From the NCBI RefSeq assembly GCF_003019035.1, contig NZ_CP027447.1: a stretch of 64,000 bases of DNA; one strand, given 5' to 3'. Each line of letters opens with the position of its first letter. Within the stretch, counting starts at the first letter, position 1. Below the pieces are notes generated by a model. It was not told the origin of the DNA. It saw only the letters and a list, made by a program, of their open reading frames with translations, and ran no database searches. Positions 13,766 through 35,916 of the stretch are shown here, one piece after another. The DNA comes from Escherichia coli (GTDB taxonomy: Bacteria > Pseudomonadota > Gammaproteobacteria > Enterobacterales > Enterobacteriaceae). The position numbers were made by a program, and so were the translations under genes.

Positions 13766-13781
13766 TGGAGCACAAAACCTG

Positions 13782-14840: not shown

Positions 14841-14843
14841 TTC

Positions 14844-16257: not shown

Positions 16258-16260
16258 ATT

Positions 16261-17397: not shown

Positions 17398-17530
17398 CGG
17401 TGATCTGAACGCATTGCTGGATGAAACGGAGGCCGCCTGGGCGGTCTGTGCAGACAAAGTGGACATGATTATTGCGTGTCAGGAGCGAAACAGTGAACAA
17501 ACCACAATCCCTGCGCCACGCCCTCAATAA
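17240..17530 (+). CDS. LysC (Rz1-like outer-membrane lipoprotein spanin), overlapping LysB in another frame
   Basis: Lipobox LTLSGC after a signal-like segment; GTG start; embedded in/overlapping lysB as in P2. Confidence 0.6.
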   Translation: MRTRIYAAGLILLCLLTLSGCGNVRHSPEVQLTVSGCPRVTPCRLEQAAPRTNGDLNALLDETEAAWAVCADKVDMIIACQERNSEQTTIPAPRPQ

Positions 17531-17924: not shown

Positions 17925-18375
17925 ACTGCAGAAAGTTGACGACTGGCTGAGTGCCTTGCTGGCGAATCTGGAGCCAGCCGCAAGAAGCCGCATGGTGCGT
18001 CAGCTGGCGCAGGAGCTGCGCCGGACACAGCAGCAGAATATCAGGATGCAACGCAACCCTGACGGCAGCAGTTATGAACCGCGCAAGGTCACAGCGCGCA
18101 GTAAAAAAGGCCGCATCAAACGTCAGATGTTTGCAAAGCTGCGCACCACAAAATACCTGAAAACCGCCGCCAGCGCCGACTCTGCCAACGTACAGTTTGA
18201 AGGCAAGGTGCAGCGCATTGCCCGCGTTCACCATTACGGCCTACGTGATCGCGTCAGCCGCAAAGGACCTGAGATCCGTTACGCAGAGAGAAAATTGCTT
18301 GGATTAAATGGATGTGAAAAATTAATTCGAAAAATATTCATTATGAATTTATTTTCTGGGGATTGGCTGGCATAA
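17917..18375 (+). CDS. tail completion / virion morphogenesis protein (P2 gpS homolog)
   Basis: 152-aa ORF; last gene before the AT-rich cargo; stop codon lies inside a terminator hairpin. Confidence 0.75.
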   Translation: MAELQKVDDWLSALLANLEPAARSRMVRQLAQELRRTQQQNIRMQRNPDGSSYEPRKVTARSKKGRIKRQMFAKLRTTKYLKTAASADSANVQFEGKVQRIARVHHYGLRDRVSRKGPEIRYAERKLLGLNGCEKLIRKIFIMNLFSGDWLA

Positions 18376-18397
18376 AAGCCAGCCTTTATTTTTTTAT
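18365..18397 (+). terminator. rho-independent terminator after S
   Basis: GGCTGGC-ATAAAA-GCCAGCC hairpin followed by TTTATTTTTTT. Confidence 0.55.
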
Positions 18398-19251
18398 GTG
18401 ATGGCCCCTATCTTTTGATTGTAATAACTATAATCAGCATGTTCTTCTGTATAAAAAATCTCAAATGCAGACAAGATGTTTGCGTAAAAACTATCCTTGG
18501 ATATAGAGGTTTTTTTATTGATGGATGCCAAAAAGTTTGTTATAAATCTTAATGATGCTGAGAAAAGAAAGTGCCCTTTCACCCAATGATTTATAGATGT
18601 ATTTTCTGGGAATTGAATGTTGTTTTTTTCTGCCAAACCATTAGTAGTAAACGATTCAGGTAGTCTATTGATATATTCATCTATTTTTTTCTTGCATATA
18701 TTGTATGAATTTCTTGATTGCATAAAACGATCACAGGAATCACCAATTACGGAGCATCCTAATTTATTTAAATGATTGTGAATATCTAGTATTATTAAGT
18801 TCTCAATGTTGCTATAGAAGTTAGAAAGCCAATTTCCTACATCTATTTCCTGCATTTTTTTTGTGCAAAAACGGCCTGTGTTTTTGAGTATGTGTGATAT
18901 GATTTTTTCATCAATGATTGTGTTTTCTATTGAATATCCCTTTGTGTAAATAATATTTGTATGCTTTACTATGTTGTCAGAAAAATGGTTTAGATCCGAA
19001 TCTCTGGCAACTATGGCGTTTATTTCTCCTGAGGTTATTTTTTCGATATATGGTTGTAAAGCTTCACATCCACCAACATCTTGAACTTCTACATTAAAAC
19101 GACCATTTTTTTTAAAAATTATTTCCCAAAAAGCAATGTCATCTTCACCTTCAACATAGACCATAATATCAGCATCATAAAATAAACTGATCACATTTTC
19201 CGCTTCATTAGACCAAGAAAAGTTTTCTGCATTAGAATCATTGATTAGCAT
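18394..19251 (-). CDS. Toprim/DUF4435-like protein (AriB-like), 285 aa
   Basis: Toprim-like acidic motifs VYVEGEDD (conserved Glu) and IVARDSD (DxD); overlaps the upstream ATPase gene by 14 bp; very AT-rich. Confidence 0.65.
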   Translation of the reverse strand: MLINDSNAENFSWSNEAENVISLFYDADIMVYVEGEDDIAFWEIIFKKNGRFNVEVQDVGGCEALQPYIEKITSGEINAIVARDSDLNHFSDNIVKHTNIIYTKGYSIENTIIDEKIISHILKNTGRFCTKKMQEIDVGNWLSNFYSNIENLIILDIHNHLNKLGCSVIGDSCDRFMQSRNSYNICKKKIDEYINRLPESFTTNGLAEKNNIQFPENTSINHWVKGHFLFSASLRFITNFLASINKKTSISKDSFYANILSAFEIFYTEEHADYSYYNQKIGAIT

Positions 19252-20494
19252 TGACTAATCTCTCCATATTGAAAATGGCGTTTTTATATTTAGATGCAAC
19301 TTCAGGAGAATGGGTTGCAGCAATAATTTGTGCATTAGGATTTAATTTTTTTATGGCAGGGATAATATTTCTTTGCCATTGAATATGTAAGGAAAGCTCA
19401 GGCTCATCAGTTAGGAAAATATATTGTTGCCCTCTTTGTAAGAGGGTCTCAATGAATAAAATTAGCAGTTGTTTTTCACCAGAAGATAAACTTTCTAAAA
19501 CTATTGGCCCATAGGTGTTATTTATGACTAACAATCCCGATTGAAAATGAAATTCTTTATCGGTGATAAAATTTCTTAGTATGCTTAAGAATTGTTCTAT
19601 TGGAGAAAATATTTTTGATGTTTTCTCTTTTGAAGTTAATGACATTTTGATTATTTTTTGTGTTTTTCTCAATGCTTCGATCGAACGAATATCAAAGCCT
19701 CTTTCACTTTTATTCTTTAATTCTGAAATGGTATTATTAATTGTTTCAACATGAAAGCTGATTTTTTTACGAATGTTTTGATCAATAGCATTTAACTGTG
19801 TGTATGCATTAAGGAGGTTTTGTTTTTCTTCCTCTTTGTTAAAGTTAATGTTGTAAGCAGGATTCTCCATATCTTCCTTGCTATAAAGTATTGATGCCAG
19901 AACCTCTTTTTGAAGTTCTAATGCGATATCTCTGGCTTTCTGGGATAGTTCAAGTTGATATTTTGTAAGTTCCTGTATTAATTCTGATAACTTATAGTCA
20001 ACAGGGTTGATAAAACGAGAGCCATATTTATCTTTAACTTCAAAATCATCACTATTTCTTAATCTGTAAACAGATAAAGAAGAAAGCGAGACTAGTTTTG
20101 CTAGTTCTGTTCTTAGTTCTTCTGTTTCATCATGCACTCTACGTCTATAACTAAGAGATATTCTTCTATCATCAGTGTTAAATAAACGAATTGTGTGTTT
20201 TTTAGATGAAAGCTGATATTCTATTTTGGAAAATGGAGATGTATCGCTTTCAAGTTTTTTGACTTTGATTGTTTTTGTCTTTTTTTTATCTTTAAGTTTT
20301 ATTTCGGCACTATTGAAATCAGCATTGTTAATACTGTCCAAATCAAGGGATAATATTGAGTGCAGAAGGTTCATAAAGGTTGTTTTACCCGTGCCATTTC
20401 GGCCTATAATAATGTTTACATCATCATTAAATGAGCAGGAACAGTTTAATCGCTGCCAAAAGCCATTAATTGTGACGCTTTGAATTTTATACAT
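19238..20494 (-). CDS. ABC/SMC-like ATPase (AAA_15/AAA_21-type, AriA-like), 418 aa
   Basis: Walker A GRNGTGKTT, ABC-signature-like LSSGEKQ, Walker B YIFLTDEPELSLH, H-loop IIAATHSPEV, with a charged coiled-coil-like insert between them. Confidence 0.75.
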   Translation of the reverse strand: MYKIQSVTINGFWQRLNCSCSFNDDVNIIIGRNGTGKTTFMNLLHSILSLDLDSINNADFNSAEIKLKDKKKTKTIKVKKLESDTSPFSKIEYQLSSKKHTIRLFNTDDRRISLSYRRRVHDETEELRTELAKLVSLSSLSVYRLRNSDDFEVKDKYGSRFINPVDYKLSELIQELTKYQLELSQKARDIALELQKEVLASILYSKEDMENPAYNINFNKEEEKQNLLNAYTQLNAIDQNIRKKISFHVETINNTISELKNKSERGFDIRSIEALRKTQKIIKMSLTSKEKTSKIFSPIEQFLSILRNFITDKEFHFQSGLLVINNTYGPIVLESLSSGEKQLLILFIETLLQRGQQYIFLTDEPELSLHIQWQRNIIPAIKKLNPNAQIIAATHSPEVASKYKNAIFNMERLVNANQ

Positions 20495-20541
20495 CTATGT
20501 ATCCTTTATTATTAGTTGAACTACTTAAATTTATAATCATT

Positions 20542-20559
20542 TGTGTCATTCTCAGTACA
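20542..20559. promoter_or_regulatory. candidate late-promoter activator site upstream of V (TGTGT-N9-TACA)
   Basis: TGTGTCATTCTCAGTACA; same pattern as the sites upstream of O and FI. Confidence 0.4.
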
Positions 20560-20606
20560 ATTATGCCGTTTGGAAGATATTATTTCAAATGTTTAATATA
20601 TACGGT

Positions 20607-21185
20607 ATGAACGCACAATTAACCGAAATCATGCGCCTTATCACCAATCTGATCCGCACTGGGGTAGTCACCGAAGTGGACCGGGAGAATTGGCTTTGCC
20701 GGGTGAAAACGGGCGACCTTGAAACTAACTGGATCAGTTGGCTGACGCTGCGTGCCGGGAATGCCCGCACATGGTGGCGACCATCGGAAGGTGAGCAGGT
20801 GGTGCTGCTGAGTCTTGGCGGCAATCTGGAGACTGCCTTTGCGCTGCCCGCTGTCTATTCGAATCAGTTCGCACCACCGTCGACGTCGGCGGACGCCTGC
20901 GTGACAGAACATCCTGACGGTGGCTGGTTTGAATACGAACCCGCCACCGGGCGCTGGTATGTCAAGGGCATCAAATCAATGGTCATTGAGGCCGCTGACA
21001 ACATCACCATGAAAACCAGTGAGTTTGTACTGGAGGCTGACCGCACGCGCATTAACAGCGAAGTGGTGATCAATGGTGGCGTTACCCAGGGCGGCGGAGC
21101 GATGAGTTCTAACGGGATCGTGGTTGATGTGCATCAGCATACTGGCGTCCTGAAAGGCGGCGATACAACCGGAGGCCCGGTATGA
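20607..21185 (+). CDS. baseplate spike/assembly protein (P2 gpV homolog)
   Basis: 192-aa ORF from ATG 20607 (MNAQLTEIMRL...); first gene of the V-W-J-I-H-G operon. Confidence 0.85.
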   Translation: MNAQLTEIMRLITNLIRTGVVTEVDRENWLCRVKTGDLETNWISWLTLRAGNARTWWRPSEGEQVVLLSLGGNLETAFALPAVYSNQFAPPSTSADACVTEHPDGGWFEYEPATGRWYVKGIKSMVIEAADNITMKTSEFVLEADRTRINSEVVINGGVTQGGGAMSSNGIVVDVHQHTGVLKGGDTTGGPV

Positions 21186-21541
21186 CGCTTTATAGCGGGA
21201 TGAACAATACCAGCGGCAAAGTCATTACTGATATTGACCATCTGCGCCAGTCGGTGCGGGACATTCTGCTGACACCGCAGGGTAGCCGTATTGCCCGTCG
21301 GGAATATGGTTCTCTGCTGTCGGCACTGATAGACCAGCCACAAAATCCGGCGTTACGCCTGCAGATTATGTCGGCAGTGTATGTGGCGCTGAGTCGCTGG
21401 GAGCCTCGGATGACGCTGGAATCCATCACAATCAACAGCAATTTTGACGGTTCTATGGTGGTGGAGCTGACCGGGCGGCGGAATAACGGTGTGCCTGTGT
21501 CCCTTTCCGTATCAACAGGAGCAGAGAATGGCAGTGATTGA
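21182..21541 (+). CDS. baseplate wedge protein (P2 gpW homolog)
   Basis: 119 aa; overlaps V stop; gpW size. Confidence 0.85.
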   Translation: MTLYSGMNNTSGKVITDIDHLRQSVRDILLTPQGSRIARREYGSLLSALIDQPQNPALRLQIMSAVYVALSRWEPRMTLESITINSNFDGSMVVELTGRRNNGVPVSLSVSTGAENGSD

Positions 21542-22436
21542 CCTTTCGCAGTTGCCAGCACCGCAGATTGTGGATGTGCCGGACTTTGAGACGCTGCTTG
21601 CCGAACGCAAGGCAGAATTTGTGGCGCTTCATCCGAAAGATGAGCAGGAAGCAGTGATCCGCACGCTGGAACTGGAATCTGAACCCGTCACCAAATTGTT
21701 GCAGGAGAACGCTTACCGTGAGTTGCTTCTGCGCCAGCGTATTAACGAAGCCGCGCAGGCGGTGATGGTGGCTTACGCAATGGGCGGAGATCTTGACCAG
21801 CTCGCCGCTAATTACAATGTGAAACGCCTGACGGTGACACCTGCTGATTATGACGCTGTGCCGCCCGTTGCGGCTGTGATGGAAAGCGATGAAGCGTTAC
21901 GCCTGCGTGTGCCTGCGGCTTTTGAAGGGCTTTCGGTTGCGGGGCCAACTGCAGCTTATGAATTTCATGCCCGAAGCGCCGACGGTCGGGTGGCGGATGC
22001 CAGTGCAACCAGTCCGGCACCTGCAGAGGTGGTGCTGACTGTCCTGAGCCGCGAAGGCGATGGAACAGCAGAAAAAGACCTGCTGGACGTGGTGGAAAAA
22101 GCTCTGAACAGTGAGAACGTCCGCCCGGTGGCTGACCGTCTGACGGTTCGCAGCGCAGAAATCATCCCGTACCGCGTGGAAGCTACCATTTTTCTCTATC
22201 CGGGGCCGGAAGCAGAGCCGGTAATGGCAGCGGCAAAAGCCAGTCTGCAGAAGTACATCGCCAGTCAGACGCGGCTTGGTCGGGATATTCGCCGTAGCGC
22301 CATCTTTGCCGCCCTGCATGTTGAGGGAGTGCAGCGTGTGGAGCTGGCTTCACCACTGGCGGATGTGGTCTTGAACAAAACACAGGCCGCATCATGTACG
22401 CAGTGGAGCGTAACCAACGGAGGAACGGATGAATAG
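21528..22436 (+). CDS. baseplate protein (P2 gpJ homolog)
   Basis: 302 aa from ATG 21528 (MAVIDLSQLPAP...), matching the gpJ N-terminus and length. Confidence 0.9.
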   Translation: MAVIDLSQLPAPQIVDVPDFETLLAERKAEFVALHPKDEQEAVIRTLELESEPVTKLLQENAYRELLLRQRINEAAQAVMVAYAMGGDLDQLAANYNVKRLTVTPADYDAVPPVAAVMESDEALRLRVPAAFEGLSVAGPTAAYEFHARSADGRVADASATSPAPAEVVLTVLSREGDGTAEKDLLDVVEKALNSENVRPVADRLTVRSAEIIPYRVEATIFLYPGPEAEPVMAAAKASLQKYIASQTRLGRDIRRSAIFAALHVEGVQRVELASPLADVVLNKTQAASCTQWSVTNGGTDE

Positions 22437-23034
22437 TCTGCTGCCACCGGGTTCAACTTCACTGGAGCGCCGACTGGCGCAGACCTGTAGCGGGATTTCT
22501 GATCTGCAGGTGCCGCTGCGTGACTTGTGGAATCCGGCAACCTGTCCGGTCAGTTTCCTGCCTTATCTCGCCTGGGCGTTCTCTGTGGATCGCTGGGACG
22601 AGGTCTGGACAGAAAGCGTCAAGCGCCAGGTGGTGAAGGATGCTTTTTATATTCATCAGCATAAAGGGACCACCAGTGCCGTGCGGCGGGTGGTGGAGCC
22701 GTTCGGCTTTCTGATTCGCATTATTGAGTGGTGGCAGACCGGAGAGACACCGGGCACGTTTCGTCTGGATATCGGCGTGCAGGACCAGGGCATCACTGAA
22801 GATACCTATCTGGAACTTGAGCGACTGATAAGCGATGCCAAACCATGTAGCCGTCACATGATCGGCATGTCCATCAACCTGCAGACCAGCGGCCCGCATT
22901 GGGTGGGAGTCGCCAGCTATCTTGGCGAAGAAATCACGATTTATCCGTATATCAACGAAACGATTATTTCCGGCGGCACCGCGCATGAAGGCGGGGCGGT
23001 CCATGTTATTGACACAATGAGAGTGAATCCATGA
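22429..23034 (+). CDS. baseplate/tail protein (P2 gpI homolog)
   Basis: 201-aa ORF between J and the tail fibre gene. Confidence 0.85.
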   Translation: MNSLLPPGSTSLERRLAQTCSGISDLQVPLRDLWNPATCPVSFLPYLAWAFSVDRWDEVWTESVKRQVVKDAFYIHQHKGTTSAVRRVVEPFGFLIRIIEWWQTGETPGTFRLDIGVQDQGITEDTYLELERLISDAKPCSRHMIGMSINLQTSGPHWVGVASYLGEEITIYPYINETIISGGTAHEGGAVHVIDTMRVNP

Positions 23035-24407
23035 GCACAAAATTTTATACCCTGCTGACGGATATTGGCGCGGCGAAACTTGCCAGCGCCGCCGCGCTCG
23101 GTGTGCCGCTAAAAATTACCCATATGGCGGTGGGCGATGGCGGTGGAGCATTGCCGACGCCGGACGCAAAGCAGACTGCACTGGTAAATGAGAAACGCCG
23201 GGCTGCGCTGAATATGCTCTATATCGACCCGCAGAACAGTAGCCAGATTATTGCTGAACAGGTGATCCCTGAAAACGAGGGCGGTTGGTGGATACGTGAA
23301 GTGGGCCTGTTTGATGAGTCAGGGGCATTGATTGCCGTGGGAAACTGCCCGGAAAGCTATAAGCCGCAACTGGCTGAAGGCAGCGGGCGCACCCAGACTG
23401 TGCGCATGGTGCTGATTACCAGCAGCACGGACAATATCACCCTGAAAATCGACCCTGCCGTCGTGCTGGCAACCCGCAAGTATGTGGATGATAAGGTACT
23501 GGAGCTGAAGGTGTACGTGGATGATCAGATGGCAAAACATCTTGCCGCACCGGACCCACATTCACAGTACGCACCCAAAGAAAGCCCGATATTTACCGGA
23601 ACACCCAAAGCGCCAACGCCAGCGGCTGGGAATAATACCACGCAGCTTGCGACCACCGCGTTTGTTCAGGCGGCACTGACGACACTGATTAATGGTGCGC
23701 CAGCCACGCTGGACACGCTGAAAGAAATAGCCACAGCCATTAACAATGATCCGAAATTCAGTACCACTATCAACAATGCGCTGGCACTGAAAGCGCCGTT
23801 GTCGAGTCCGGCACTCACCGGAACGCCAACAGCACCTACTGCGGCACAGTCGGTCAACAATACACAGATTGCCACCACGGCTTTTGTGAAATCGGCGATT
23901 GCGGCAATGGTGGGTTCTGCCCCTGCGGCACTGGATACACTGAACGAACTGGCGGCGGCACTGGGGAATGACCCGAATTTTGCCACGACAATGCTTAATG
24001 CGCTGTCAGGTAAACAACCGCTGGACAATACGCTGACTAATTTGAGTGGAAAGGATGTTGCTGGTCTTCTCGCATTCCTGGGTTTGAAAACCGCCGCACA
24101 ACGCGACGTTGGGACTGGCACAAATCAAATTCCTGACATGAACGCTTTTAGCTCTGGCTCTGGCTGGCAGAAATTACCTGGAGGCAGGATTCTGCAGTGG
24201 CGGGGAATAGCCAATGGCCCTGGGGATATTACAAGCCCGCTACCCATTCCATTTCCAAATCGCGCAATAGGATGGGCAATTACGTCCGATTATGTACCAG
24301 GGTCAGGCGGAGTTGGCACAATAGCGGGGACGTGTACTGCAACGAATATCATTTCACGAAATACAAATGTGAGCACTGGTGGTAGCGCTATCGTAGTGGG
24401 GGAATAG
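23031..24407 (+). CDS. tail fibre protein (P2 gpH homolog)
   Basis: 458 aa; conserved gpH-type N-terminus (MSTKFYTLLTDIGAAKLA...); repetitive Ala/Thr-rich shaft; divergent C-terminus. Confidence 0.85.
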   Translation: MSTKFYTLLTDIGAAKLASAAALGVPLKITHMAVGDGGGALPTPDAKQTALVNEKRRAALNMLYIDPQNSSQIIAEQVIPENEGGWWIREVGLFDESGALIAVGNCPESYKPQLAEGSGRTQTVRMVLITSSTDNITLKIDPAVVLATRKYVDDKVLELKVYVDDQMAKHLAAPDPHSQYAPKESPIFTGTPKAPTPAAGNNTTQLATTAFVQAALTTLINGAPATLDTLKEIATAINNDPKFSTTINNALALKAPLSSPALTGTPTAPTAAQSVNNTQIATTAFVKSAIAAMVGSAPAALDTLNELAAALGNDPNFATTMLNALSGKQPLDNTLTNLSGKDVAGLLAFLGLKTAAQRDVGTGTNQIPDMNAFSSGSGWQKLPGGRILQWRGIANGPGDITSPLPIPFPNRAIGWAITSDYVPGSGGVGTIAGTCTATNIISRNTNVSTGGSAIVVGE

Positions 24408-24409
24408 GT

Positions 24410-24832
24410 ATGAGAACGTATCGCTATGACGCAATAACAAACGCATTTTATCCGTATGAGCTACAGAATGAGTATGAACAAGCAGGGATGTGGCCGGAGT
24501 CGGGCCATGATGTGAATGAAGATATTTTTCAGCAATTCATCAACCCTCCCGCAGGTAAGGTGCGTGTTGCCGGGAATGACGGAATGCCAGCATGGGGGGA
24601 TATTCCGCCACCGGCTCATGATGAACTCGTTGCGGTAGCAGATGTGAAAAAAGCAGCACTATTGGCAGAAGCGTCAGTCGTTATCGCCCCGCTGGCTGAT
24701 GCACAGGCGGGCGGTTATATCGATGACGCTGACGTGCCGCGACTGGCAGCATGGCAGAAATATCGCTATGCACTGACGAAAGTGGATACATCAACTGCGC
24801 CGGATATCACCTGGCCGCTGCAACCAGTGTAG
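24410..24832 (+). CDS. tail fibre assembly protein (P2 gpG / Tfa homolog)
   Basis: 140-aa ORF directly after H. Confidence 0.8.
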   Translation: MRTYRYDAITNAFYPYELQNEYEQAGMWPESGHDVNEDIFQQFINPPAGKVRVAGNDGMPAWGDIPPPAHDELVAVADVKKAALLAEASVVIAPLADAQAGGYIDDADVPRLAAWQKYRYALTKVDTSTAPDITWPLQPV

Positions 24833-25016
24833 AAATCTTTAGTGTAAATCGTCAAAGATGCTGGCGACTTGATGATTGATGACGGTATCAGTGATGATAA
24901 TTTACAGGTTGTACGGGAATAATACATAACAATTTGAATGGGGTATAATAGATAAATAATACATCATCATACCCCATTTTAGCCATTATCTATTGGCAAA
25001 AATATTCTTAATACCT

Positions 25017-26054
25017 TTATATTTGCCTACCTCCTAATAAAATGTGTGAGGTGTATTTGTTGGTTTTCAATAACCTTGCTACAATTATACAGGTGGTTAC
25101 AATAAGGAAAACAAATGAAGGGGTTATGATGAGGTTATATATGAGTGGATTTTCGCATAGGTTATTAATGTTCACGTATGCCTCTATTCTGTGAAAAATA
25201 AACGACGAGATTATATAGATGGGAAAGGTGTAAGTACCGACAAAGGATGTGGCTCGTATAAATAAATTATTTTTCGTTGATAAAAATGTATAAGCATATA
25301 TAAGCGATATGCTTCCGGCGAAGCCAATGAAGTAGCGAAATATAATAATGAATGATTGATGCCAGAAATCAACATTCTCATATGTCATTTTAGATATGTA
25401 AATATAATACTCTCTATTCCATAGGAGAAGCATACCAATCCATGTTAATACGGCTAACACACCAATTTTGTGCCTATTTCTAGAGGCAAAATCTAAAATG
25501 CGATGGGCGGATATACCAGCGATAAAATAAGGGGCCATAAATTTAATTTTGTCCATATTCCAATCATCTCCATATGCAAGGGATATACTAAATATCAGTA
25601 AATAAAGCACCACAGAATATTGTTTGCTTATTGAGTGACAAATAGTATAAACAATAGATACTGCAAAGAGTGCAGAAAGGAACCAGAAGGCGTAGATGGC
25701 TCCATATCTAATATTTATTAAATTTATATCTCTTCCCACAAAAATGGATTCAGCAATGAACCATGCAATGGATGGGATTATTAACTGCATGAATTTTCTT
25801 TTGATAATTGATGATGGTTTTCTCTTGAGAGAAAAATAGAAAAGATAGCCGCTAAGCAGCATAAAAAATGGCATGTGGAAGCTGTAAATGGTAATAAATA
25901 ATGGGTTGTCAAAAAAATTGAAACTATCTTTTTTTACAAACTGAATTGAATGGCCCCACACGACAAAAATTATAGCTAATCCTTTCATTGAGTCTATAAT
26001 GGAATTTCGAGTGCTGGGTGTCTCTGTTATAATAAGATGTGGTTCGTTTTTCAT
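25017..26054 (-). CDS. acyltransferase family 3 integral membrane protein (O-antigen/LPS O-acetyltransferase-like)
   Basis: 345 aa, highly hydrophobic multi-TM; N-terminal region GLAIIFVVWGHSIQF typical of acyltransferase-3; very AT-rich; opposite strand to tail genes. Confidence 0.75.
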   Translation of the reverse strand: MKNEPHLIITETPSTRNSIIDSMKGLAIIFVVWGHSIQFVKKDSFNFFDNPLFITIYSFHMPFFMLLSGYLFYFSLKRKPSSIIKRKFMQLIIPSIAWFIAESIFVGRDINLINIRYGAIYAFWFLSALFAVSIVYTICHSISKQYSVVLYLLIFSISLAYGDDWNMDKIKFMAPYFIAGISAHRILDFASRNRHKIGVLAVLTWIGMLLLWNREYYIYISKMTYENVDFWHQSFIIIFRYFIGFAGSISLIYAYTFLSTKNNLFIRATSFVGTYTFPIYIISSFIFHRIEAYVNINNLCENPLIYNLIITPSFVFLIVTTCIIVARLLKTNKYTSHILLGGRQI

Positions 26055-26386
26055 TTAATTTGTCAACTTTAGATTGAGTGGTATAAGAATTGCAACTAAA
26101 CACTCGTGAGCTAATATTTACATATATTATCAATGATCATTAATTCAATCAATTAGGAATTGCTTTATTGTATGTAACAGATTCTCATTTTGGGGTAGAT
26201 GCTACTATTGCTGTCATCACACCATAAATTAAGTCCATTCATATTAGATATCTTGGGTCGTTCCGGGAAGTACACGGCCACTATCAGTAAATGTGTGGTA
26301 AGAGCTTCACCAGTCGAACGTTTTTGAAAATACAGAGATAATGGCTAACAGGCATCATCCCCGGTTTTTATTTAGGGGGATGCTCA

Positions 26387-26706
26387 TGCTTATTGGCTAT
26401 GTACGTGTATCAACAAATGACCAGAACACTGATTTGTAATGCAATGCGCTGAACTGCGCGGGATGTGCGCGGATTTTTGAGGATAAAATCAGTGGCACTA
26501 AGTCCGACAGGCCGGGACTGGCTGCAGCTCGCGCCAAAGGCAGAGTAGGTGGACGCCGTCCTAAGTTGACCACCGAACAGTGGGCACAGATTGGACGTTT
26601 ACTCGAGGCCGGAGAATCAAGACAGCGTATTGCACTGATTTTTGATGTAGGCGTTTCTACCATTTATCGAAAATTTCCGGCAAATAAGAGCAATGAATCT
26701 CCCTGA
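26387..26706 (+). pseudogene. DNA invertase (Hin/Gin/Pin/Cin serine recombinase) pseudogene
   Basis: N-terminus MLIGYVRVSTNDQNTDL then in-frame TAA (26438-26440) where Hin has Gln; RPGL joins directly to AAARAKGR (catalytic core of ~100 codons missing); C-terminal HTH GGRRPKLTTEQWAQIGRLL...STIYRKF is in a different frame (1-nt shift near 26640). Confidence 0.8.
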
Positions 26707-26754
26707 ATCAGCTTTATTTTGATTATCCCTGAAAGCAGACAAATACCGTCATTT

Positions 26755-26772
26755 TGTGTGAATAACGGTACA
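26755..26772. promoter_or_regulatory. candidate late-promoter activator site upstream of FI (TGTGT-N9-TACA)
   Basis: TGTGTGAATAACGGTACA, centred ~85 bp upstream of the FI start codon. Confidence 0.45.
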
Positions 26773-26848
26773 ACTGCGCTTAGCTGTTTGTCAGGCACAA
26801 TAACTTCAACATAGGGCGAAGCCTAATCCAATCAGGAGGTTCGCCACT

Positions 26849-28021
26849 ATGGCTCAGGATTACCACCACGGGGTGCGCGTAGTTGAAGTCAACGAAGGCA
26901 CCCGATCCATTACCACGGTGAGCACCGCCATCGTGGGTATGGTCTGCACGGGCGATGATGCCGATGCAAAAATGTTTCCTCTTAATAAACCCGTGCTGAT
27001 CACTGATGTGCTGACTGCCAGCGGTAAAGCGGGTGAGTCCGGTACGCTGGCCCGTTCGCTGGATGCCATCGCTGACCAGGCAAAACCCGTGACCGTTGTT
27101 GTGCGTGTGCCGCAGGGTGAAACGGAAGAAGAAACCACGACCAATATCATCGGAGCAGTGACCGCTGAAGGTAAAAAAACAGGCATGAAAGCCCTGTTAT
27201 CTGCCCAGTCACAGCTCGGCGTTAAACCGCGCATTCTCGGCGTGCCAGGTCACGACACGAAGGCGGTAGCTACTGAGTTGCTGAGCGTGGCGCAAAGCCT
27301 GCGTGGGTTTGCTTACCTGTCAGCGTATGGTTGCAAGACGGTGCAGGAAGCAATCACTTACCGTGAAAACTTCAGTCAGCGTGAAGGAATGCTGATCTGG
27401 CCCGACTTTACTGGCTGGGACACGGTGCTGAATGCCGAAGCAACGGCTTATGCCACCGCCCGTGCGCTTGGTCTGCGCGCTAAAATTGACGAGCAGACCG
27501 GATGGCACAAAAGCCTGTCCAACGTGGGCGTGAACGGTGTCACCGGAATTTCTGCTGATGTGTTCTGGGATCTGCAGGACCCGGCAACCGATGCAGGTCT
27601 GCTGAACCAGAACGACGTCACCACGCTTGTGCGTAAAGACGGTTTCCGCTTCTGGGGTTCCCGCAGCCTGAGTGATGACCCGCTCTTTGCCTTCGAAAAC
27701 TACACCCGCACGGCGCAGGTGTTGATGGACACGATGGCAGAAGCACACATGTGGGCGGTGGATAAACCGCTTAACCCGTCGCTGGCCCGCGACATTATCG
27801 AAGGTATCCGCGCCAAAATGCGCAGCCTGGTCAGTCAGGGCTATCTCATTGGTGGTGATTGCTGGCTGGATGAGTCGGTGAACGACAAAGACACGCTGAA
27901 AACCGGAAAACTCACCATCGACTATGACTACACGCCAGTGCCGCCACTTGAAAATCTGATGCTGCGCCAGCGCATCACCGATCAGTACCTGGTGAATTTC
28001 GCCAGCCAGGTCAGCGCGTAA
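26849..28021 (+). CDS. tail sheath protein (P2 gpFI homolog)
   Basis: 390-aa ORF followed by the tail tube gene. Confidence 0.9.
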
Positions 28022-28030
28022 GGGGACAAC

Positions 28031-28546
28031 ATGGCTTTACCACGCAAATTAAAACATCTGAACTTGTTTAACGACGGGAACAACTGGCAGGGGATCGTTG
28101 AGTCGCTGACGCTGCCGAAATTCACCCGCAAATATGAGAAGTATCGCGGCGGCGGTATGCCGGGGGCGGTGGATGTGGATCTGGGACTGGATGACAGTGC
28201 ACTGGATACAGAATTTTCCATTGGTGGTACTGAACTGCTGCTGTTTAAGCAGATGGGCAAATCCACGGTGGATGGCATCCAGCTGCGCTTTACCGGCTCT
28301 ATCCAGCGTGACGATACCGGGGAAGTGCAGGCCGTGGAGCTTGTCGTGCGTGGACGTCACAAAGAAGTGGATTCCGGCGAGTGGAAGACGGGCGAAAGCA
28401 ACACCACCAAAGTGACCAATACCAACAGCTACGCGAAGCTGACCATCAATGGTGAGGTGCTCTATGAAGTGGACCTTATCAACATGGTGGAAATTGTGGA
28501 CGGTGTGGACCTGATGGAAGCGCACCGCAACGCCCTCGGCCTCTGA
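28031..28546 (+). CDS. tail tube protein (P2 gpFII homolog)
   Basis: 171-aa ORF after the sheath gene. Confidence 0.9.
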   Translation: MALPRKLKHLNLFNDGNNWQGIVESLTLPKFTRKYEKYRGGGMPGAVDVDLGLDDSALDTEFSIGGTELLLFKQMGKSTVDGIQLRFTGSIQRDDTGEVQAVELVVRGRHKEVDSGEWKTGESNTTKVTNTNSYAKLTINGEVLYEVDLINMVEIVDGVDLMEAHRNALGL

Positions 28547-28600
28547 TGTATCTGAACGGCGCGGAATACCGCGCCAGAACCCAATTGACAGGACAGCAAA

Positions 28601-28903
28601 ATGAGCGATAAGCAGACTGAAAAGACCATTCAACTGGATACCCCCATCAAGCGCGGTAAAACAGAAATCACCGAAATTGTGCTGCGTAAACCGCAGTCCG
28701 GTGCGCTGCGCGGTACACGCCTGCAGGCCATTATGGATATGGATGTAAACGCGATGATGACCGTGATCCCCCGCATCTCCAGTCCGGCACTGACTGCACA
28801 GGAAATTGCAGAGATGGACCCGGCAGATCTCACTGCCATGTCGGTTGAGGTTGTCACTTTTTTGTTGAAGAAGTCGGTGCTTGCCGTTTTACCGACAGCC
28901 TGA
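28601..28903 (+). CDS. tail assembly chaperone (P2 gpE homolog)
   Basis: 100-aa ORF upstream of the tape measure gene; contains a T6G slippery site near its 3' end. Confidence 0.8.
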   Translation: MSDKQTEKTIQLDTPIKRGKTEITEIVLRKPQSGALRGTRLQAIMDMDVNAMMTVIPRISSPALTAQEIAEMDPADLTAMSVEVVTFLLKKSVLAVLPTA

Positions 28904-29037
28904 CGGTTGACGATCTGGTGGCAGATATCGCCACCATTTTTCACTGGCCGCCATCCGTTACTGACGTTATGCCGCTGACCGAAGTGCTGGAATGGCGGTA
29001 TAAAGCGATTCAGAGAAGCGGGGCCAACGATGAGTGA
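28601..29037 (+). CDS. tail assembly chaperone frameshift product (gpE+E' equivalent, -1 frameshift at 28858-28864)
   Basis: Slippery TTTTTTG at 28858-28864; the -1 frame continues open (FFVEEVGACRFTDSLTVDDLVADIATIFHWPP...RSGANDE) to TGA at 29035-29037, overlapping the T start. Confidence 0.65.
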
Positions 29038-32000
29038 TAACAACCTGCGTCTGCAGGTCATTCTTAATGCGGTTGACAAGCTCACCCGCCCATTTCGATC
29101 TGCGCAGGCCAGTTCAAGAGAACTGGCTGCTGCTGTCAAAAAATCCCGCGATGCAATAAAGCAGCTTGATCAGGCCGGGAGCAGTCTGGACAGCTTCCGA
29201 AAGCTGCAGGCAGAAAATCAGAAATTAGGCGACAGGCTGAACTATGCCCGCCAGCGTGCAAATTTGCTCAGTCAGGAACTGGGAGCGATGGGGCCGCCTT
29301 CGCAACGTCAGGTTGTTGCTCTGGGCCGTCAACGGCTGGCTGTTCAGCGCCTGGAAGAACGCCAGAAAAAGCTGCAGCAGCAGACGGCGCTTGTGCGTGC
29401 TGAACTGTACCGGGCGGGAATTTCTGCGAAAGACGATGCGGGAGCAACTGCCCGTTTAGCCCGTGAAACATCACGTTATAACCAGGAACTTTCGAAACAG
29501 GAGGCGCGGCTGAAGCGACTGGGGGAAGCTCAGCGCAGGATGAATGCAGCGCGTGCCAGTTATGCCCGTTCGCTGGAGGTGCGTGATCGTATTGCAGGTG
29601 CCGGAGCCACCACCACGGCTGCAGGGCTGGCAATGGGTGCGCCAGTGATGGCGGCAGTAAAAAGCTATACCAGCATGGAAGATGCCATGAAAGGTGTGGC
29701 AAAGCAGGTCAATGGTCTGCGTGACGATAATGGCAACCGCACTGCACGTTTTTATGAAATGCAGGATGCCATCAAGGCTGCCAGCGAACAGTTGCCGATG
29801 GAAAACGGTGCGGTGGACTTCGCTGCACTGGTTGAAGGTGGTGCGCGCATGAACGTCGCAAACCCTGACGACAGCTGGGAAGATCAGAAACGTGACCTGC
29901 TGGCCTTCGCCAGTACGGCAGCAAAGGCGGCAACAGCCTTTGAGCTGCCAGCGGATGAACTGTCAGAAAGTCTGGGGAAAATCGCCCAGCTCTACAAAAT
30001 CCCCACCCGCAATATTGAACAGCTCGGTGATGCGCTGAACTATCTGGATGATAACGCCATGTCGAAAGGGGCAGACATCATTGATGTGATGCAACGTCTG
30101 GGCGGTGTGGCTGACCGTCTGGATTATCGTAAAGCGGCGGCGCTGGGTTCCACCTTCCTGACACTGGGCGCTGCGCCAGAGGTTGCAGCCAGTGCAGCAA
30201 ACGCGATGGTGCGTGAATTGTCCATTGCCACCATGCAAAGCAAGAGTTTCTTTGAAGGGATGAATCTGCTGAAACTCAATCCTGAAGTGATTGAAAAGCA
30301 GATGACGAAGGATGCGATGGGAACCATCCAGCGCGTGCTGGAGAAGGTAAACGCGCTGCCGCAGGACAAGCGCCTGTCTGCCATGACTATGTTGTTTGGT
30401 AAAGAGTTTGGCGATGACGCGGCGAAACTGGCAAACAACCTGCCGGAACTGCAGCGTCAGTTAAAACTGACAGCGGGCAATGATGCGCTTGGCTCCATGC
30501 AGAAAGAATCCGACATTAACAAGGATTCACTTTCTGCGCAGTGGTTGCTGGTCAAAACCGGAGCGCAGAACACCTTCAGCAGCCTGGGCGAAACGCTGCG
30601 CCAGCCGCTGATGGATATTCTGTACACGGTGAAAAGCGTCACGGGGGCGTTGCGTCGCTGGGTGGAAGCTAACCCGGAACTGACAGGCACACTGATGAAA
30701 GCATCGGCTGTTGTGGCTGCGGTTACCGTCGGCCTCGGCACCTTAGCGGTGGCGCTGGCTGCAGTGCTGGGGCCGCTGGCAGTGATCCGTCTGGGATTCT
30801 CTGTGTTGGGTATCAAAACGTTATCTTCCGTTACGGCAGCAGTAACCCGAACCAGCAGCGCGTTGTCCTGGCTGGCTGGCGCACCACTGGCACTGCTGCG
30901 ACGCGGGCTTGCTTCATCGGGCAACGCCGCAGGTTTACTTACTGCGCCGTTGTCGTCTTTGCGCCGCACGGCATCACTGACGGGAAATGTCCTGAAAACT
31001 GTAGCAGGTGCGCCGGTTGCATTTTTGCGGTCTGGATTATCCGGTTTACGTGCTGTTGCTGTGATGTTTATGAATCCTCTGGCGGTACTGCGCGGTGGAC
31101 TGGCCGCCGCAGGCACGGTGCTGCGAGTACTGGCATCTGGTCCACTGGCGATGCTGCGCGTTGCCCTGTATGTCATATCTGGTCTGTTAGGTGCTCTGCT
31201 CAGTCCGATAGGTCTTGTGGTTACTGCACTGGCGGGCGTGGCGCTGGTTGTCTGGAAATACTGGCAACCCATCACCGCATTTCTCGGTGGCGTGGTGGAA
31301 GGATTCAAAGCGGCGGCAGGTCCCATCAGTGCAGCGTTCGAACCGCTTAAGCCCGTGTTCCAGTGGATTGGCGACAAAGTGCAGGCGCTGTGGGGCTGGT
31401 TTACTGATCTGCTGACGCCCGTTAAGTCGACCTCTGCCGAACTGCAGAGCGCAGCGGCAATGGGGCGGCGATTCGGGGAGGCACTGGCGGAAGGGCTGAA
31501 TATGGTCATGCATCCGCTGGACTCCCTGAAATCCGGCGTTTCCTGGTTGCTGGAGAAGCTCGGCATTGTCAGTAAAGAGGCCGCAAAGGCAAAACTGCCG
31601 GAAAGCGTGACGCGTCAGCAACCTGCGACGGTGAATGCAGACGGTAAAGTGATGATGCCATCGGGTGGTTTTCCATCATGGGGATATGGCTTTGCGGGGA
31701 TGTATGACAGCGGCGGGTATATCCCGCGCGGGCAGTTTGGCATCGTCGGTGAAAACGGGCCGGAAATTGTTAACGGCCCGGCAAATGTGACCAGCCGGAG
31801 AAATACAGCTGCACTGGCTGCCGTTGTTGCCGGAATGATGGGCGTTGCTGCCGCGCCAGCAGAGCTTCCACCGTTGCACCCCTTGGCACTTCCCGCGAAA
31901 GGTGGAGAAGCAATTGTGAGTCGCGCAGCCACTGTGCCGCTCGTTCAACGGATTGAGGCACCGACGCAGATCATCATTCAGACGCAGCCAGGACAAAGTG

Positions 32001-32107
32001 CGCAGGATATTGCGCGGGAGGTGGCACGCCAGCTTGATGAACGTGAACGCAGGCTGAAGGCAAAAGCCAGGAGTAACTACAGCGATCAGGGGGGATACGA
32101 CGCATGA
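29030..32107 (+). CDS. tail tape measure protein (P2 gpT homolog)
   Basis: 1025-aa ORF, coiled-coil N-terminal region and Ala/Gly-rich repeats; position after E/E'. Confidence 0.9.
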   Translation: MSDNNLRLQVILNAVDKLTRPFRSAQASSRELAAAVKKSRDAIKQLDQAGSSLDSFRKLQAENQKLGDRLNYARQRANLLSQELGAMGPPSQRQVVALGRQRLAVQRLEERQKKLQQQTALVRAELYRAGISAKDDAGATARLARETSRYNQELSKQEARLKRLGEAQRRMNAARASYARSLEVRDRIAGAGATTTAAGLAMGAPVMAAVKSYTSMEDAMKGVAKQVNGLRDDNGNRTARFYEMQDAIKAASEQLPMENGAVDFAALVEGGARMNVANPDDSWEDQKRDLLAFASTAAKAATAFELPADELSESLGKIAQLYKIPTRNIEQLGDALNYLDDNAMSKGADIIDVMQRLGGVADRLDYRKAAALGSTFLTLGAAPEVAASAANAMVRELSIATMQSKSFFEGMNLLKLNPEVIEKQMTKDAMGTIQRVLEKVNALPQDKRLSAMTMLFGKEFGDDAAKLANNLPELQRQLKLTAGNDALGSMQKESDINKDSLSAQWLLVKTGAQNTFSSLGETLRQPLMDILYTVKSVTGALRRWVEANPELTGTLMKASAVVAAVTVGLGTLAVALAAVLGPLAVIRLGFSVLGIKTLSSVTAAVTRTSSALSWLAGAPLALLRRGLASSGNAAGLLTAPLSSLRRTASLTGNVLKTVAGAPVAFLRSGLSGLRAVAVMFMNPLAVLRGGLAAAGTVLRVLASGPLAMLRVALYVISGLLGALLSPIGLVVTALAGVALVVWKYWQPITAFLGGVVEGFKAAAGPISAAFEPLKPVFQWIGDKVQALWGWFTDLLTPVKSTSAELQSAAAMGRRFGEALAEGLNMVMHPLDSLKSGVSWLLEKLGIVSKEAAKAKLPESVTRQQPATVNADGKVMMPSGGFPSWGYGFAGMYDSGGYIPRGQFGIVGENGPEIVNGPANVTSRRNTAALAAVVAGMMGVAAAPAELPPLHPLALPAKGGEAIVSRAATVPLVQRIEAPTQIIIQTQPGQSAQDIAREVARQLDERERRLKAKARSNYSDQGGYDA

Positions 32108-32589
32108 TGATGGTGCTGGGATTGTACGTGTTTATGCTGCGCACCGTTCCGTATCAGGAACTGCAGTATCAACGCAGCTGGCGACATGCGGCAAACAGTC
32201 GGGTAAACCGACGTCCGTCCACGCAGTTTCTGGGACCGGAAAACGACATGCTGACGCTTTCCGGTGTTCTTATGCCGGAAATAACAGGCGGCAGGCTGTC
32301 GTTGCTGGCACTGGAGCAGATGGCAGAACAGGGGAAAGCATGGCCCCTGATTGAAGGCAGCGGCACGATTTACGGCATGTATGTGATTGAGGGACTGAAT
32401 CAGACTAAAACGGAGTTTTTCCGCGACGGTATGCCGCGCCGGATTGAGTTCACCCTGTCGCTCAAACGAGTGGATGAATCCCTGTCCGATATGTTCGGTG
32501 ATCTCAGTGCGCAACTGAATAATCTGCAGGACACGGCAACGTCTGCCTTAAGCGATATCAGTAAAACGGTGGGAGGGCTGCTGTCGTGA
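32104..32589 (+). CDS. tail protein (P2 gpU homolog)
   Basis: 161 aa; ATGA overlap with T stop. Confidence 0.85.
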   Translation: MMMVLGLYVFMLRTVPYQELQYQRSWRHAANSRVNRRPSTQFLGPENDMLTLSGVLMPEITGGRLSLLALEQMAEQGKAWPLIEGSGTIYGMYVIEGLNQTKTEFFRDGMPRRIEFTLSLKRVDESLSDMFGDLSAQLNNLQDTATSALSDISKTVGGLLS

Positions 32590-33686
32590 ATTTCAGCTCT
32601 GAACTGCTTAACAAAGGCAACAAAACTCCCGCATTCAGCATCAGTATTGAGGGCAGGGATATCACCACTGTGCTGGATAACCGCCTGATGAGTTTGACGC
32701 TGACGGATAACCGGGGCTTTGAAGCGGACCAGCTTGATCTGGAGCTGGATGACGCTGACGGAAAAATCGTGCTGCCGCGCCGTGGTGCGGTTATTACGCT
32801 GGCGCTGGGCTGGAAGGGGCAGCCGCTTTTCCCGAAAGGGGCATTCACAGTGGACGAGATTGAACACACTGGCGCACCGGACCGCCTGACTATCCGGGCG
32901 CGAAGTGCTGATTTTCGGGAAACGCTGAATACCCGCCGTGAAAAATCGTGGCATAAGACCACCGTCGGGGAAGTGGTGAAGGAAATAGCCGCGCGGCACA
33001 AGCTGAAGATGGCACTGGGTAAAGACCTGTCGGATAAGCCCGTGGAGCATATAGACCAGACTAATGAGAGTGACGGCAGTTTTCTGATGCGGCTGGCGCG
33101 ACAGTACGGTGCCATCGCGTCGGTGAAAAATGGCAATCTGTTATTCATCCGGCAGGGGCAGGGCAAAAGCGCCACTGGTAAACCTCTGCCAGTGATCACT
33201 ATCACACGCAAGGACGGCGACAGTCACCGATTTACCCTGGCAGATCGCGGAGCCTACACGGGCGTAATTGCCAGCTGGTTGCATACCCGCGAACCTGCGA
33301 AGAAAGAAAGCACCACGGTGAAGCGTAAGCGCAGAACTAAGAAGCAGAAGAAAGAGCCGGAAGCGAAGCAGGGCGATTACCTGGTGGGTACGGATGAAAA
33401 CGTGCTGGTACTTAATCGCACTTATGCCAACCGGAGCAACGCTGAACGGGCAGCGAAAATGCAGTGGGAACGCCTGCAACGCGGCGTTGCGTCATTCTCG
33501 CTACAACTGGCGGAAGGTCGGGCAGATCTCTACACGGAAATGCCTGTGAAGGTCAGCGGCTTTAAACAGCCGATAGATGATGCGGAATGGACCATTACGA
33601 CTCTGACACATACCGTCAGCCCGGATAACGGTTTTACGACCAGTCTGGAGCTTGAAGTGAGGATTGATGATTTCGAAATGGAATGA
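32586..33686 (+). CDS. late control/tail protein D (P2 gpD homolog)
   Basis: 366 aa; last structural gene before ogr. Confidence 0.85.
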   Translation: MNFSSELLNKGNKTPAFSISIEGRDITTVLDNRLMSLTLTDNRGFEADQLDLELDDADGKIVLPRRGAVITLALGWKGQPLFPKGAFTVDEIEHTGAPDRLTIRARSADFRETLNTRREKSWHKTTVGEVVKEIAARHKLKMALGKDLSDKPVEHIDQTNESDGSFLMRLARQYGAIASVKNGNLLFIRQGQGKSATGKPLPVITITRKDGDSHRFTLADRGAYTGVIASWLHTREPAKKESTTVKRKRRTKKQKKEPEAKQGDYLVGTDENVLVLNRTYANRSNAERAAKMQWERLQRGVASFSLQLAEGRADLYTEMPVKVSGFKQPIDDAEWTITTLTHTVSPDNGFTTSLELEVRIDDFEME

Positions 33687-33776
33687 TTCTTCGCAATGGA
33701 GAACTTTTAAGTTTGCAAAATGGAATAATGCGGTATCATTATTGTGAATTTAGCAAAAATGGGGAGAACTCGAAAA

Positions 33777-33995
33777 ATGATGATTTGCCCACTGTGTGGA
33801 AGTGCCGCCCATACTCGCAGCAGTTTTCAGGTATCTTCATTGACCAAAGAGCGTTACAACCAGTGCCAGAACATTAACTGCAGCCATACTTTTGTTACCC
33901 ATGAAACTTTTGTTCGTTCGATTGCAACGCCAAAAGAGTCAAATCCGGTTCAGCCGCATCCAATGAAATCAGGACAGGTGGCGCTCTCTCTTTGA
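33777..33995 (+). CDS. ogr: Ogr/Delta-family zinc-finger late transcription activator
   Basis: MMICPLCGSAAHTRSS...CQNINCSHTF matches the Ogr C-x2-C...C-x4-C zinc finger; last phage gene before the host junction. Confidence 0.85.
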   Translation: MMICPLCGSAAHTRSSFQVSSLTKERYNQCQNINCSHTFVTHETFVRSIATPKESNPVQPHPMKSGQVALSL

Positions 33996-34230
33996 CGCTG
34001 CCGCCATTATGTCGCCATCGTTAAAAAACAGTGCTTCTAATATCATGATTTTAAAAGGCATAAATTTTAGGCAACAAAAAACCCACCAACCTTGAACCGA
34101 AATGGCGGGGTTGATGGGCTCCACAAAATGGGGACATCAAAGAAAAGCAGTGGCACTAATTAAGACTGATGCCCTGCGGAAAAGTTCTGCGGTTGTGCAA
34201 AAAAATTTCATTTTCAGGGCAACTTCAGTT

Positions 34231-35916
34231 TTATCCTAATCCTGGCCATACCATGACGATGATTGTCCCTGCCAGCGTCAGCAGGACGTTGGCGATTGCA
34301 TAGGTGCCCGCATAGCCCAGCGCCGGGATGTTACTGCGAGCTGTATCACTGATGATCTCCATTGCCGGCGCGCAGGTGCGTGCGCCCATCATTGCGCCGA
34401 ACAACAGTGCGCGGTTCATTCGCAATACATAAGCACCGAACAAGAAGCAGATAACCACTGGCACCAGACTGACAATCAATCCGGCAATCAACATTTGACC
34501 GCCAATCGCGCCCAGGCCGTTATTAATACCGCTACCGGCGCTCAGACCAACGCCTGCCATAAACACCATCAAGCCGAACTCTTTCACCATGCTTAATGCA
34601 CCTTGCGGAATGTAACCGAAGGTCGGGTGGTTAGCACGCATAAAGCCCAGCATAATTCCGGCGAATAACAACCCGGCAGCGTTCCCCATGCCGAAACTGA
34701 ATGTGCTGAACTGGAAGGTGATCATCCCGATCATCAGCCCAATAACAAAGAAGGCGCAGAATGCCAGCAAGTCAGTGACCTGGCTGTGAATCGAGATAAA
34801 GCCGATGCGATCGGCGATGGTTTTTACCCGGCGGGCATCGCCGCTGACTTGTAAAACGTCACCTTTGTTAAGCACGACGTTGTCATCAATCGGCATCTCA
34901 ATCTGGCTACGTATGACGCGGTTAAGGAAGCAACCGTGATCGGTCAACTTCAGTTGTGCCAGGCGTTTGCCAACAGCGTTATGGTTTTTAACGACCACTT
35001 CTTCAGTGACGATTCGCATGTCGAGAAGGTCACGATCGAAAACTTCTTTGCCATTACGGAAACTGGGATCGAGTCGGGCGTGGGCGTCGGGATAGCCTAC
35101 CAACGCTATTTCATCGCCCATTTGTAGTACGGCATCACCGTCTGGATTTGCCAGAATCCCGTTACGCCGAATACGTTCAATGTAACAGCCAGTTTGTCGA
35201 TAAATACCCAGTTCACGCAGATTTTTGCCGTCGGTCCAGGCCACCAGCTCCGGGCCGACGCGGTAGGCGCGGATCACCGGCAAATAAACCTTACGGTTGG
35301 CATCTGTGTCCAGGCCACGTTCGCGGGCGATTTGCTGGGCGCTGGTCTGTAAGTCCTGATGCTGCAATTTCGGCAAGTAACGCGCACCAACAATCAAACT
35401 CACCAGACCGATTAAATAGGTTAAGGCATACCCGAGGCTCAGATTATCCAGTGCCAGTGAGAGCTGCCTGCTTTCCATGCCGGAATGACGCAGTGTATCG
35501 CCAGCACCGACCAAAACCGGTGTTGACGTCATAGAGCCTGCTAACATACCGGCCGTCAGGCCAATATCCCAGCCAAACAGCTTACCTAACCCTAAGGCGA
35601 TGACCAGCGCACTGCCAACCATCACCAGTGCTAACATTAGGTAATTTTTCCCATCGCGAAAAAAAATGGAAAAAAAGTTCGGTCCGGCTTCGACCCCGAC
35701 GCAGAAAATAAACAGCATAAAGCCAAGATTAAGCGCGTCGGTGTTAATGCTGAAATGTTGTTGGCCTAATAACAGCGATACGACTAAAACGCCAATGGAA
35801 TTACCCAGTTGGATCGAACCAAGTCGTAATTTCCCGAGACATAGCCCAAGCGCGAGGACCACAAATAATAACAGAATGTAATTCCCATTTAACAATTCGG
35901 CGACGTTTATATTCAC
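34231..35916 (-). CDS. ybjL: putative transporter YbjL (AAE antiporter family)
   Basis: 561-aa membrane protein with two TrkA-C-like soluble domains; position and length as in E. coli K-12. Confidence 0.85.

Follow-up and report, generated by a model that had tools for sequence, protein, structure and literature searches.

The right end of a P2/186-like prophage of Escherichia coli is very probably an attR site in the 3' end of the small RNA gene rybB

The DNA analyzed here is a stretch of 64,000 nucleotides from E. coli, referred to below as the window. The segment from 33996 to 34230 very probably represents an attR site (P-O-B'), formed where a P2/186-like temperate phage (Peduoviridae) has inserted into the sRNA gene rybB at its 3' end. 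The prophage part within the window runs from nucleotide 16 of the integrase gene int to the attR core (1..34086), as judged from its collinearity with the prophages of strains CH10508 and CFT073. The last phage gene before the junction is that of the late-gene activator ogr (33777..33995, plus strand; Pfam PF04606 Ogr_Delta, E 5e-22), which is annotated as ogr/Delta-like in both of these strains. The first host protein gene to the right is ybjL, encoding the aspartate:alanine antiporter (34231..35916, minus strand); its 561-residue open reading frame has the length of the annotated K-12 ybjL, and the gene carries the same name in many other genomes. Further right, on this E. coli chromosome, ybjM, grxA, ybjC and nfsA follow in the K-12 order. 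A first-pass annotation of the letters alone had placed attR between ogr and ybjL, with phage DNA ending shortly after ogr and ybjL on the host side. Both statements hold, and the breakpoint corresponds to 34060..34086. The prophage boundary is thus placed to the base; the earlier localization was correct, and the attachment site is one already known.

The attachment core, of which the window holds the attR copy, comprises 27 bp (ATAAATTTTAGGCAACAAAAAACCCAC) and was delimited by comparison with empty-site genomes, a phage attP and related lysogens. An alignment with the prophage-free rcdA-ybjL region, which had been proposed earlier as a check, bore out the junction. In the K-12 alignment, the match of prophage-free E. 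coli to the window starts only at 34060, 4 nt past the rcdA stop codon, and extends rightward from there. Klebsiella phage KP12, whose attP has the order ogr-core-int (ogr 2578..2796, core 2861..2887 and int 2962..4014 on the minus strand, in the coordinates of locus L002), aligns from the other side up to 34085/6 and then departs into int-proximal DNA. Since empty sites align from 34060 and the KP12 attP aligns to 34086, the core is 34060..34086. The direct repeat was checked in the related lysogens CH10508 and CFT073 (97-99% identity), the attL of the prophage under study lying outside the window. In these lysogens the core is identical at 27 of 27 positions between attL and attR, and the flanks diverge from the first base on both sides. 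Conversely, among the matches listed for a K-12 empty-site query, those to occupied genomes stop at core position 27. Direct reading of eight empty-site strains showed one copy of the core at the uninterrupted attB. The core allele of the window combines C at position 27 with T at position 9 (34068), where the attL and attR cores of CH10508 and CFT073 have C. Within the core lie the final 11 nt of rybB (34076..34086), and its other 16 nt lie beyond the gene. The attachment target is the rybB 3' end, and not a generic rcdA-ybjL spacer.

The gene rybB itself, which encodes the 79-nt RybB, known as a σE-dependent, Hfq-binding sRNA that represses omp mRNAs, is intact on the minus strand from 34154 to 34076, as defined by Rfam family RF00110 and by the known 5' end of the RNA, GCCACUGC. 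The Rfam RybB model matches 34073..34151 (minus strand) over its full length (positions 1-79 of 79), scoring 104.1 bits (E 3.9e-22) where the gathering score is 40. To the right of the core, 75 nt agree with K-12 throughout; the 5' seed and the U-tail of RybB are likewise identical, and the only difference from the K-12 gene is at 34086, inside the core. The location of the gene is also conserved, with ybjL immediately to the right on the same strand and, in empty-site genomes, rcdA (ybjK) immediately to the left. Upstream of the 5' end, a promoter of σE type is predicted by motif match at 34161..34187 (minus strand), with a -35 element GAACTT (34187..34182), a 16-nt spacer, a -10 element TCTTA (34165..34161) and 6 nt before the +1 G at 34154; these elements fit the σE consensus. 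In a genomic SELEX study, rybB, which adjoins ybjL, gave the strongest peak for the RpoE holoenzyme (PMC5493296). The earlier reading of this segment, with its possible ybjL terminator, had thus overlooked a complete, independent gene with its predicted promoter. In the RefSeq feature tables examined for loci around rybB, including those of CFT073 (L008) and of a further locus (L007), no rybB ncRNA is listed between ybjL and ogr or rcdA, while the sequence is present.

An inverted repeat within this segment is the Rho-independent terminator of RybB. The first-pass annotation had recognized the repeat but placed it at about 34078-34115, some 3 to 4 nt too far left; its arms are CCCACCAACC (34082..34091) and GGTTGATGGG (34109..34118), with 9 Watson-Crick pairs and one C/A position that forms a G.U pair in the minus-strand RNA. 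The stem extends to 12-13 pairs, so that the terminator spans 34080..34120 (minus strand) with a 5' arm at 34109..34120, a 17-nt loop, a 3' arm at 34080..34091 and a U-run to 34076. The U-run reported earlier after the repeat is indeed there, as U6 on the minus strand (A6 on the plus strand, 34076..34081). The minimum-free-energy fold of the terminator is -22.4 kcal/mol (z = -3.4 versus shuffled sequences, more than expected by chance), and its 12-bp stem also appears in the consensus structure of Rfam. The K-12 allele folds at -23.0 kcal/mol, so the allele of the window costs 0.6 kcal/mol. The C at 34086, which replaces a U-A by a U.G pair, was considered as phage-derived damage to RybB and ruled out, since the same allele occurs in the empty sites of STLIN_13, KK19-02, APEC E956 and WL297 and the fold energy is barely altered. 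This imperfection of the stem is a polymorphism of the host population and not damage from integration.

The phage possesses a terminator of its own just downstream of int. The attP/attL hairpin pairs over 9 bp around a 4-nt loop, is followed by the same U-run (-9.0 and -9.4 kcal/mol) and uses the same GGGUUUUUU as its 3' half. The loop and the 5' arm of the RybB hairpin are host DNA only. These features suggest how integration would proceed. The tyrosine integrase encoded at the other end of the prophage would exchange strands within the 27 bp that attP and attB have in common. In attB, this block extends from 4 nt past the rcdA stop codon into the RybB terminator, where it takes in the U-tail along with 7 nt at the base of the 3' stem arm; in attP, it supplies the U-tail and the stem base of the 9-bp int terminator. 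Recombination would thus swap the sequences downstream of two terminators that agree in their 3' halves. Core DNA that is phage-derived or identical would complete the RybB hairpin at attR, and host-derived core DNA would complete the int hairpin at attL. Because the phage and host terminators have this 3' half in common, exchange inside the block would leave both whole, and because the phage copy of the core is near-identical to that of the host, rybB would survive intact, as is the case with integrases that target tRNA genes.

Putative integrase binding sites were recognized on both arms. The P arm in the window carries predicted arm-type sites at 33999..34018 (plus strand), the tandem repeats TGCCGCCAT (33999) and TGTCGCCAT (34010) spaced 11 bp apart. 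No second tandem pair of this motif occurs in the window, and the pair lies directly after ogr. The motif count over the whole window is not significant alone, with 7 found against 3.3 expected. An equivalent tandem pair (TGYCGCCAY) occurs in the same orientation on the P' arm of attL or attP, about 96 nt rightward of the core, in CH10508 (L004 1985 and 1996), CFT073 (L008 1480 and 1491) and KP12 (L002 2983 and 2994). It is the tandem 11-bp phasing, together with conservation on both arms in four elements, that points to arm-type Int sites, and the repeats fit the 186-type arm consensus tgccGCCActt described for P2-like phages (PMC3448106). A speculative IHF-like match (TATCATGATTTTA, 34041..34053, plus strand; one mismatch to WATCARNNNNTTR) is located in the A/T-rich spacer between the arm sites and the core, and this assignment is non-specific, the window containing 140 matches to the IHF consensus with at most one mismatch. 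In the P' arm of attL, outside the window, two AAAACAATAAGTTA-like and two GTGGTGGTTA-like direct repeats were observed between the core and the arm repeats (L004 1890..1985). They are conserved in CH10508, CFT073 and KP12 and are candidate sites for Apl/Cox or for an accessory factor.

By comparison with CH10508, the whole prophage measures about 35.2 kb. As stated in the first-pass annotation, the integrase gene and the left junction fall outside the window: only the first 16 nt of int are present (1..16, minus strand, with the ATG at 14..16). Base 1 of the window corresponds to base 3001 of locus L004, in which the CH10508 int occupies 1961..3016 (minus strand), and attL is expected about 1.11-1.14 kb to the left of base 1. 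The Int of CH10508, the closest relative, is a tyrosine recombinase and has the Pfam domains Int_N and Phage_integrase. The lysis-lysogeny switch region (412..1328) comprises a 186-type CI repressor gene (412..987, minus strand; Pfam Phage_CI_repr and Phage_CI_C) and, in the Apl/Cox position, a gene of 73 codons (1107..1328, plus strand) that is annotated as Cox at the same position in ON470620. Its product, for which no Pfam match was obtained, is presumed from its position to be the excision directionality factor. A CII gene is also present, followed by the replication gene A. A perfect LexA box (CTGTAAATATAAACAG, 6820..6835, plus strand) precedes a 62-codon open reading frame and a DinI-family, Tum-like gene (7077..7310, plus strand; PF06183 DinI, E 1e-22), an arrangement that we take to be comparable to the tum operon of phage 186, which encodes an antirepressor and is under LexA control. 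The LexA box, the DinI/Tum-like gene and the CI of 186 type suggest a plausible SOS inducibility of the 186 type.

The backbone is collinear with the CH10508 and CFT073 prophages at 92-98% DNA identity, except for three non-homologous cargo slots. The open reading frames A, Q, P, O, N, M, L, the lysis genes, R, S, V, W, J, I, H, G, FI, FII, E, T, U, D and ogr are all full length, so the earlier remark that every module appears intact holds for each prophage gene visible in the window. One slot, a variable position of P2-like phages between the tail genes gpS (17917..18375) and gpV (20541..21185), contains a defense pair of PARIS type (18394..20494, minus strand), made up of a 418-residue AAA_15/AAA_21 ATPase (PADLOC AriA, E 2e-38) and a 285-residue DUF4435 protein (AriB, E 2e-21); this pair is absent from the CH10508 and CFT073 prophages. 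Another, between gpA/DinI and the portal gene in the position of P2 old/tin, contains a 560-residue KAP-family P-loop NTPase (8274..9956, plus strand; Pfam E 2.7e-9; PADLOC candidate PDC-S49, E 3.7e-25), near which a 111-codon open reading frame (7503..7838, minus strand) gave no family match. Finally, the tail-fiber assembly gene and the sheath gene flank a gene for an Acyl_transf_3 acyltransferase of 345 residues (25017..26054, minus strand). This gene may serve lysogenic conversion by modifying the O-antigen, and the CFT073 prophage has an acyltransferase at the same position.

Other explanations of the junction were weighed against this one. The hairpin could primarily be the terminator of ybjL, with no independent gene between ybjL and the junction; this was the first option of the first-pass annotation, which rightly recognized a minus-strand intrinsic terminator. 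Past the ybjL stop codon, the hairpin is indeed the only strong terminator on the minus strand. A simple scan of 33700..34400 gave no other canonical one between that stop codon and rybB, and its loop limit of 3-8 nt lets the 17-nt RybB loop escape, so that an empty result is not evidence against a terminator. By extrapolation from this, read-through from ybjL probably ends at the RybB hairpin too. The full-length RybB match of 104 bits, the correctly spaced σE-type promoter upstream of the RybB 5' end and the established status of rybB as an RpoE-dependent transcription unit beside ybjL (PMC5493296) nevertheless make a terminator without its own gene very unlikely. We give next to no credence to a second proposal, in which the inverted repeat is itself a dyad-symmetric core-type integrase recognition element and the whole hairpin is the att site. 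The core does overlap the base of the 3' arm, and tyrosine recombinases do bind inverted core-type sites, but the identity between attP and attB reaches only 7 nt into the 3' arm, ending at 34086, and attP lacks the loop and the 5' arm and has a different, shorter hairpin instead. Moreover, 17 nt separate the two arms of the repeat, more than the 6-8 bp that are usual for the overlap region. The earlier suggestion that the hairpin is part of the att core is accordingly right for the U-tail and 7 nt of the 3' arm and wrong for the rest, which is host DNA. Terminator and att core, which had been offered as alternatives, do not exclude each other, for the 27-bp core overlaps the RybB terminator in part.

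A third explanation accepts attR at rybB and regards it as the scar of a fossil, a prophage that is defective, for instance through damage to int or attL, and that cannot excise. Int and attL do lie outside the window, a deleted remnant exists at the same site (ON470620, in which the region from gpH to attR is gone), and P2-like prophages are often not readily inducible. Against these points stand full-length phage genes collinear with prophages that are annotated without pseudogenes, intact arm repeats and core, and the perfect LexA box upstream of the DinI/Tum-like gene next to a 186-type CI. We consider a fossil unlikely, and the prophage integrated at the rybB 3' end is presumably competent for excision.

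We searched 5,426 complete E. coli genomes with positions 33700..34700 of the window. The whole query, including the junction between ogr and rybB (ogr-ybjL), was matched in 1114 genomes, and the remaining matches listed all start at query base 361, which is base 34060 of the window. In the reciprocal search with the K-12 empty site, the query was uninterrupted in 4227 of the 5422 matching complete E. coli genomes. The site is occupied in about one in five complete E. coli genomes. Two database entries that seemed to represent a free form of such an element were rejected. ON470620.1 ("Escherichia phage vB_EcoM-813R9"), considered as an E. coli attP, is a chromosomal fragment with a deleted prophage remnant and flanking host genes; the remnant retains attL only, since attR and rybB are lost, together with about 20 host genes, in the deletion from gpH into the host gene ybjT. 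The attL core of this remnant is K-12-like, a hint, though no proof, that the crossover fell to the right of position 13. NZ_CP148327.1 ("plasmid pZ1323HEC0475-2", 42 kb, circular), considered as an excised element, is a chromosomal stretch that starts at the prophage invertase. It contains the right part of the prophage, from the invertase to ogr, then attR and rybB, and after these some 34 kb of chromosome from ybjL to cspD, and is most likely an assembly artifact broken at the invertible tail-fiber segment.

The use of rybB as the attachment site of P2-like (Felsduovirus) prophages has already been described, and the junction holds no new biology in this respect. According to the E. coli W genome paper, strains W, B and Crooks have P2-like prophages (Rybb*W, Rybb*B and Rybb*Cr) inserted at the "rybB ncRNA", and the prophage of strain B carries retron Ec86 (PMC3032704). 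In a pan-genome study of defense islands, the only occupants of hotspot #29, present in 109 genomes, were Felsduovirus prophages integrated within rybB (PMC10121019). The prophages of HS, ATCC 8739 and CFT073 (PhiECO1/2/3) were reported by Nilsson et al. to have one common integration site (PMC3448106), and the Klebsiella island Kpn38RybB lies "precisely within" rybB (PMC4048246). The prophage described here resembles the E. coli rybB-site prophages (Felsduovirus/Peduoviridae) in its rcdA-rybB-ybjL locus, its terminal gene order (...D-ogr-attR), its 186-type switch and its arm repeats, and shares with the CFT073 prophage the same 27-bp core apart from the polymorphic positions. It differs from them only in cargo (the PARIS-like AriA/AriB pair, the KAP NTPase and the acyltransferase) and in the T9/C27 allele of the core. 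The Klebsiella elements 4LV2017 (Elveevirus), KP12 and Kpn38RybB target the same rybB 3' end in a host of a different genus whose rybB is almost identical to that of E. coli. They are 97-98% identical to the window from ogr through the P arm to the core, and their int region is about 90% identical to that of CH10508, the counterpart of the prophage part outside the window. For 4LV2017, the authors annotated 19 nt as att (core positions 9-27), compared with the 27 bp obtained from E. coli comparisons.

More distant systems follow a similar design. The att core reported for P2 is 27 bp, the same size as the core found here. P2 (integrating at locI and locH) and 186 (at tRNA-Ile) likewise have a tyrosine integrase, an attP between convergent ogr and int, and two direct arm repeats on each side. 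They differ in the sequence of the core, and the target here is the terminator of an sRNA, unlike a tRNA gene or the P2 loc sites. The core of 186, like that of other integrators into RNA genes, re-creates the 3' end of the target gene (PMC3448106). The elements at ssrA (Fels-2, SopEPhi and CP4-57), at cyaR (Wphi2, the P2 locus) and at the Salmonella sdsR/ryeA locus also target conserved RNA genes at their 3' end or terminator, and the gene is restored by the phage copy, but the RNA genes are others, as are the integrase specificities (PMC3032704 Table 2; PMC3333887). A literature search found no experimental study of the core-binding specificity of this Int.

Variation of the core among empty sites provides the sole mildly novel lead of this analysis. 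The eight prophage-free strains have six core alleles, with positions 5, 9, 12, 13 and 27 variable, whereas the adjoining 75 nt, which span rybB, are invariant save one change in the loop. Position 27, the U-A or U.G pair of the RybB terminator stem, is combined with positions 5 and 13 in all four possible ways, and several of the alleles from empty sites equal attL or attR cores of prophages. These patterns tentatively raise the possibility, which we hold to be less probable than not, that the 27-bp core is a micro-hotspot of allelic mosaicism generated by repeated integration and excision of rybB-targeting phages. The polymorphisms may be scars of excision, or they may simply mark the only unconstrained bases between rcdA and rybB.

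The main value of these results is the correct annotation of the prophage boundary and of rybB. This intact stress-response sRNA gene, located in what looks like spacer, should not be assigned to the prophage or dropped from the annotation; since its ncRNA is unlisted in the RefSeq tables mentioned above, a reader relying on annotation would likewise see an empty spacer. The site is a useful marker locus for P2-like prophages and their defense cargo. The case also illustrates the general rule that the host gene survives when an integrase targets an RNA gene or a terminator, since a copy of the 3' end is brought along. If core mosaicism is indeed the product of integration and excision, the strand-exchange region would lie between core positions 14 and 27, and phage traffic, not only point mutation, would shape the sequence within the RybB terminator and directly downstream of it.
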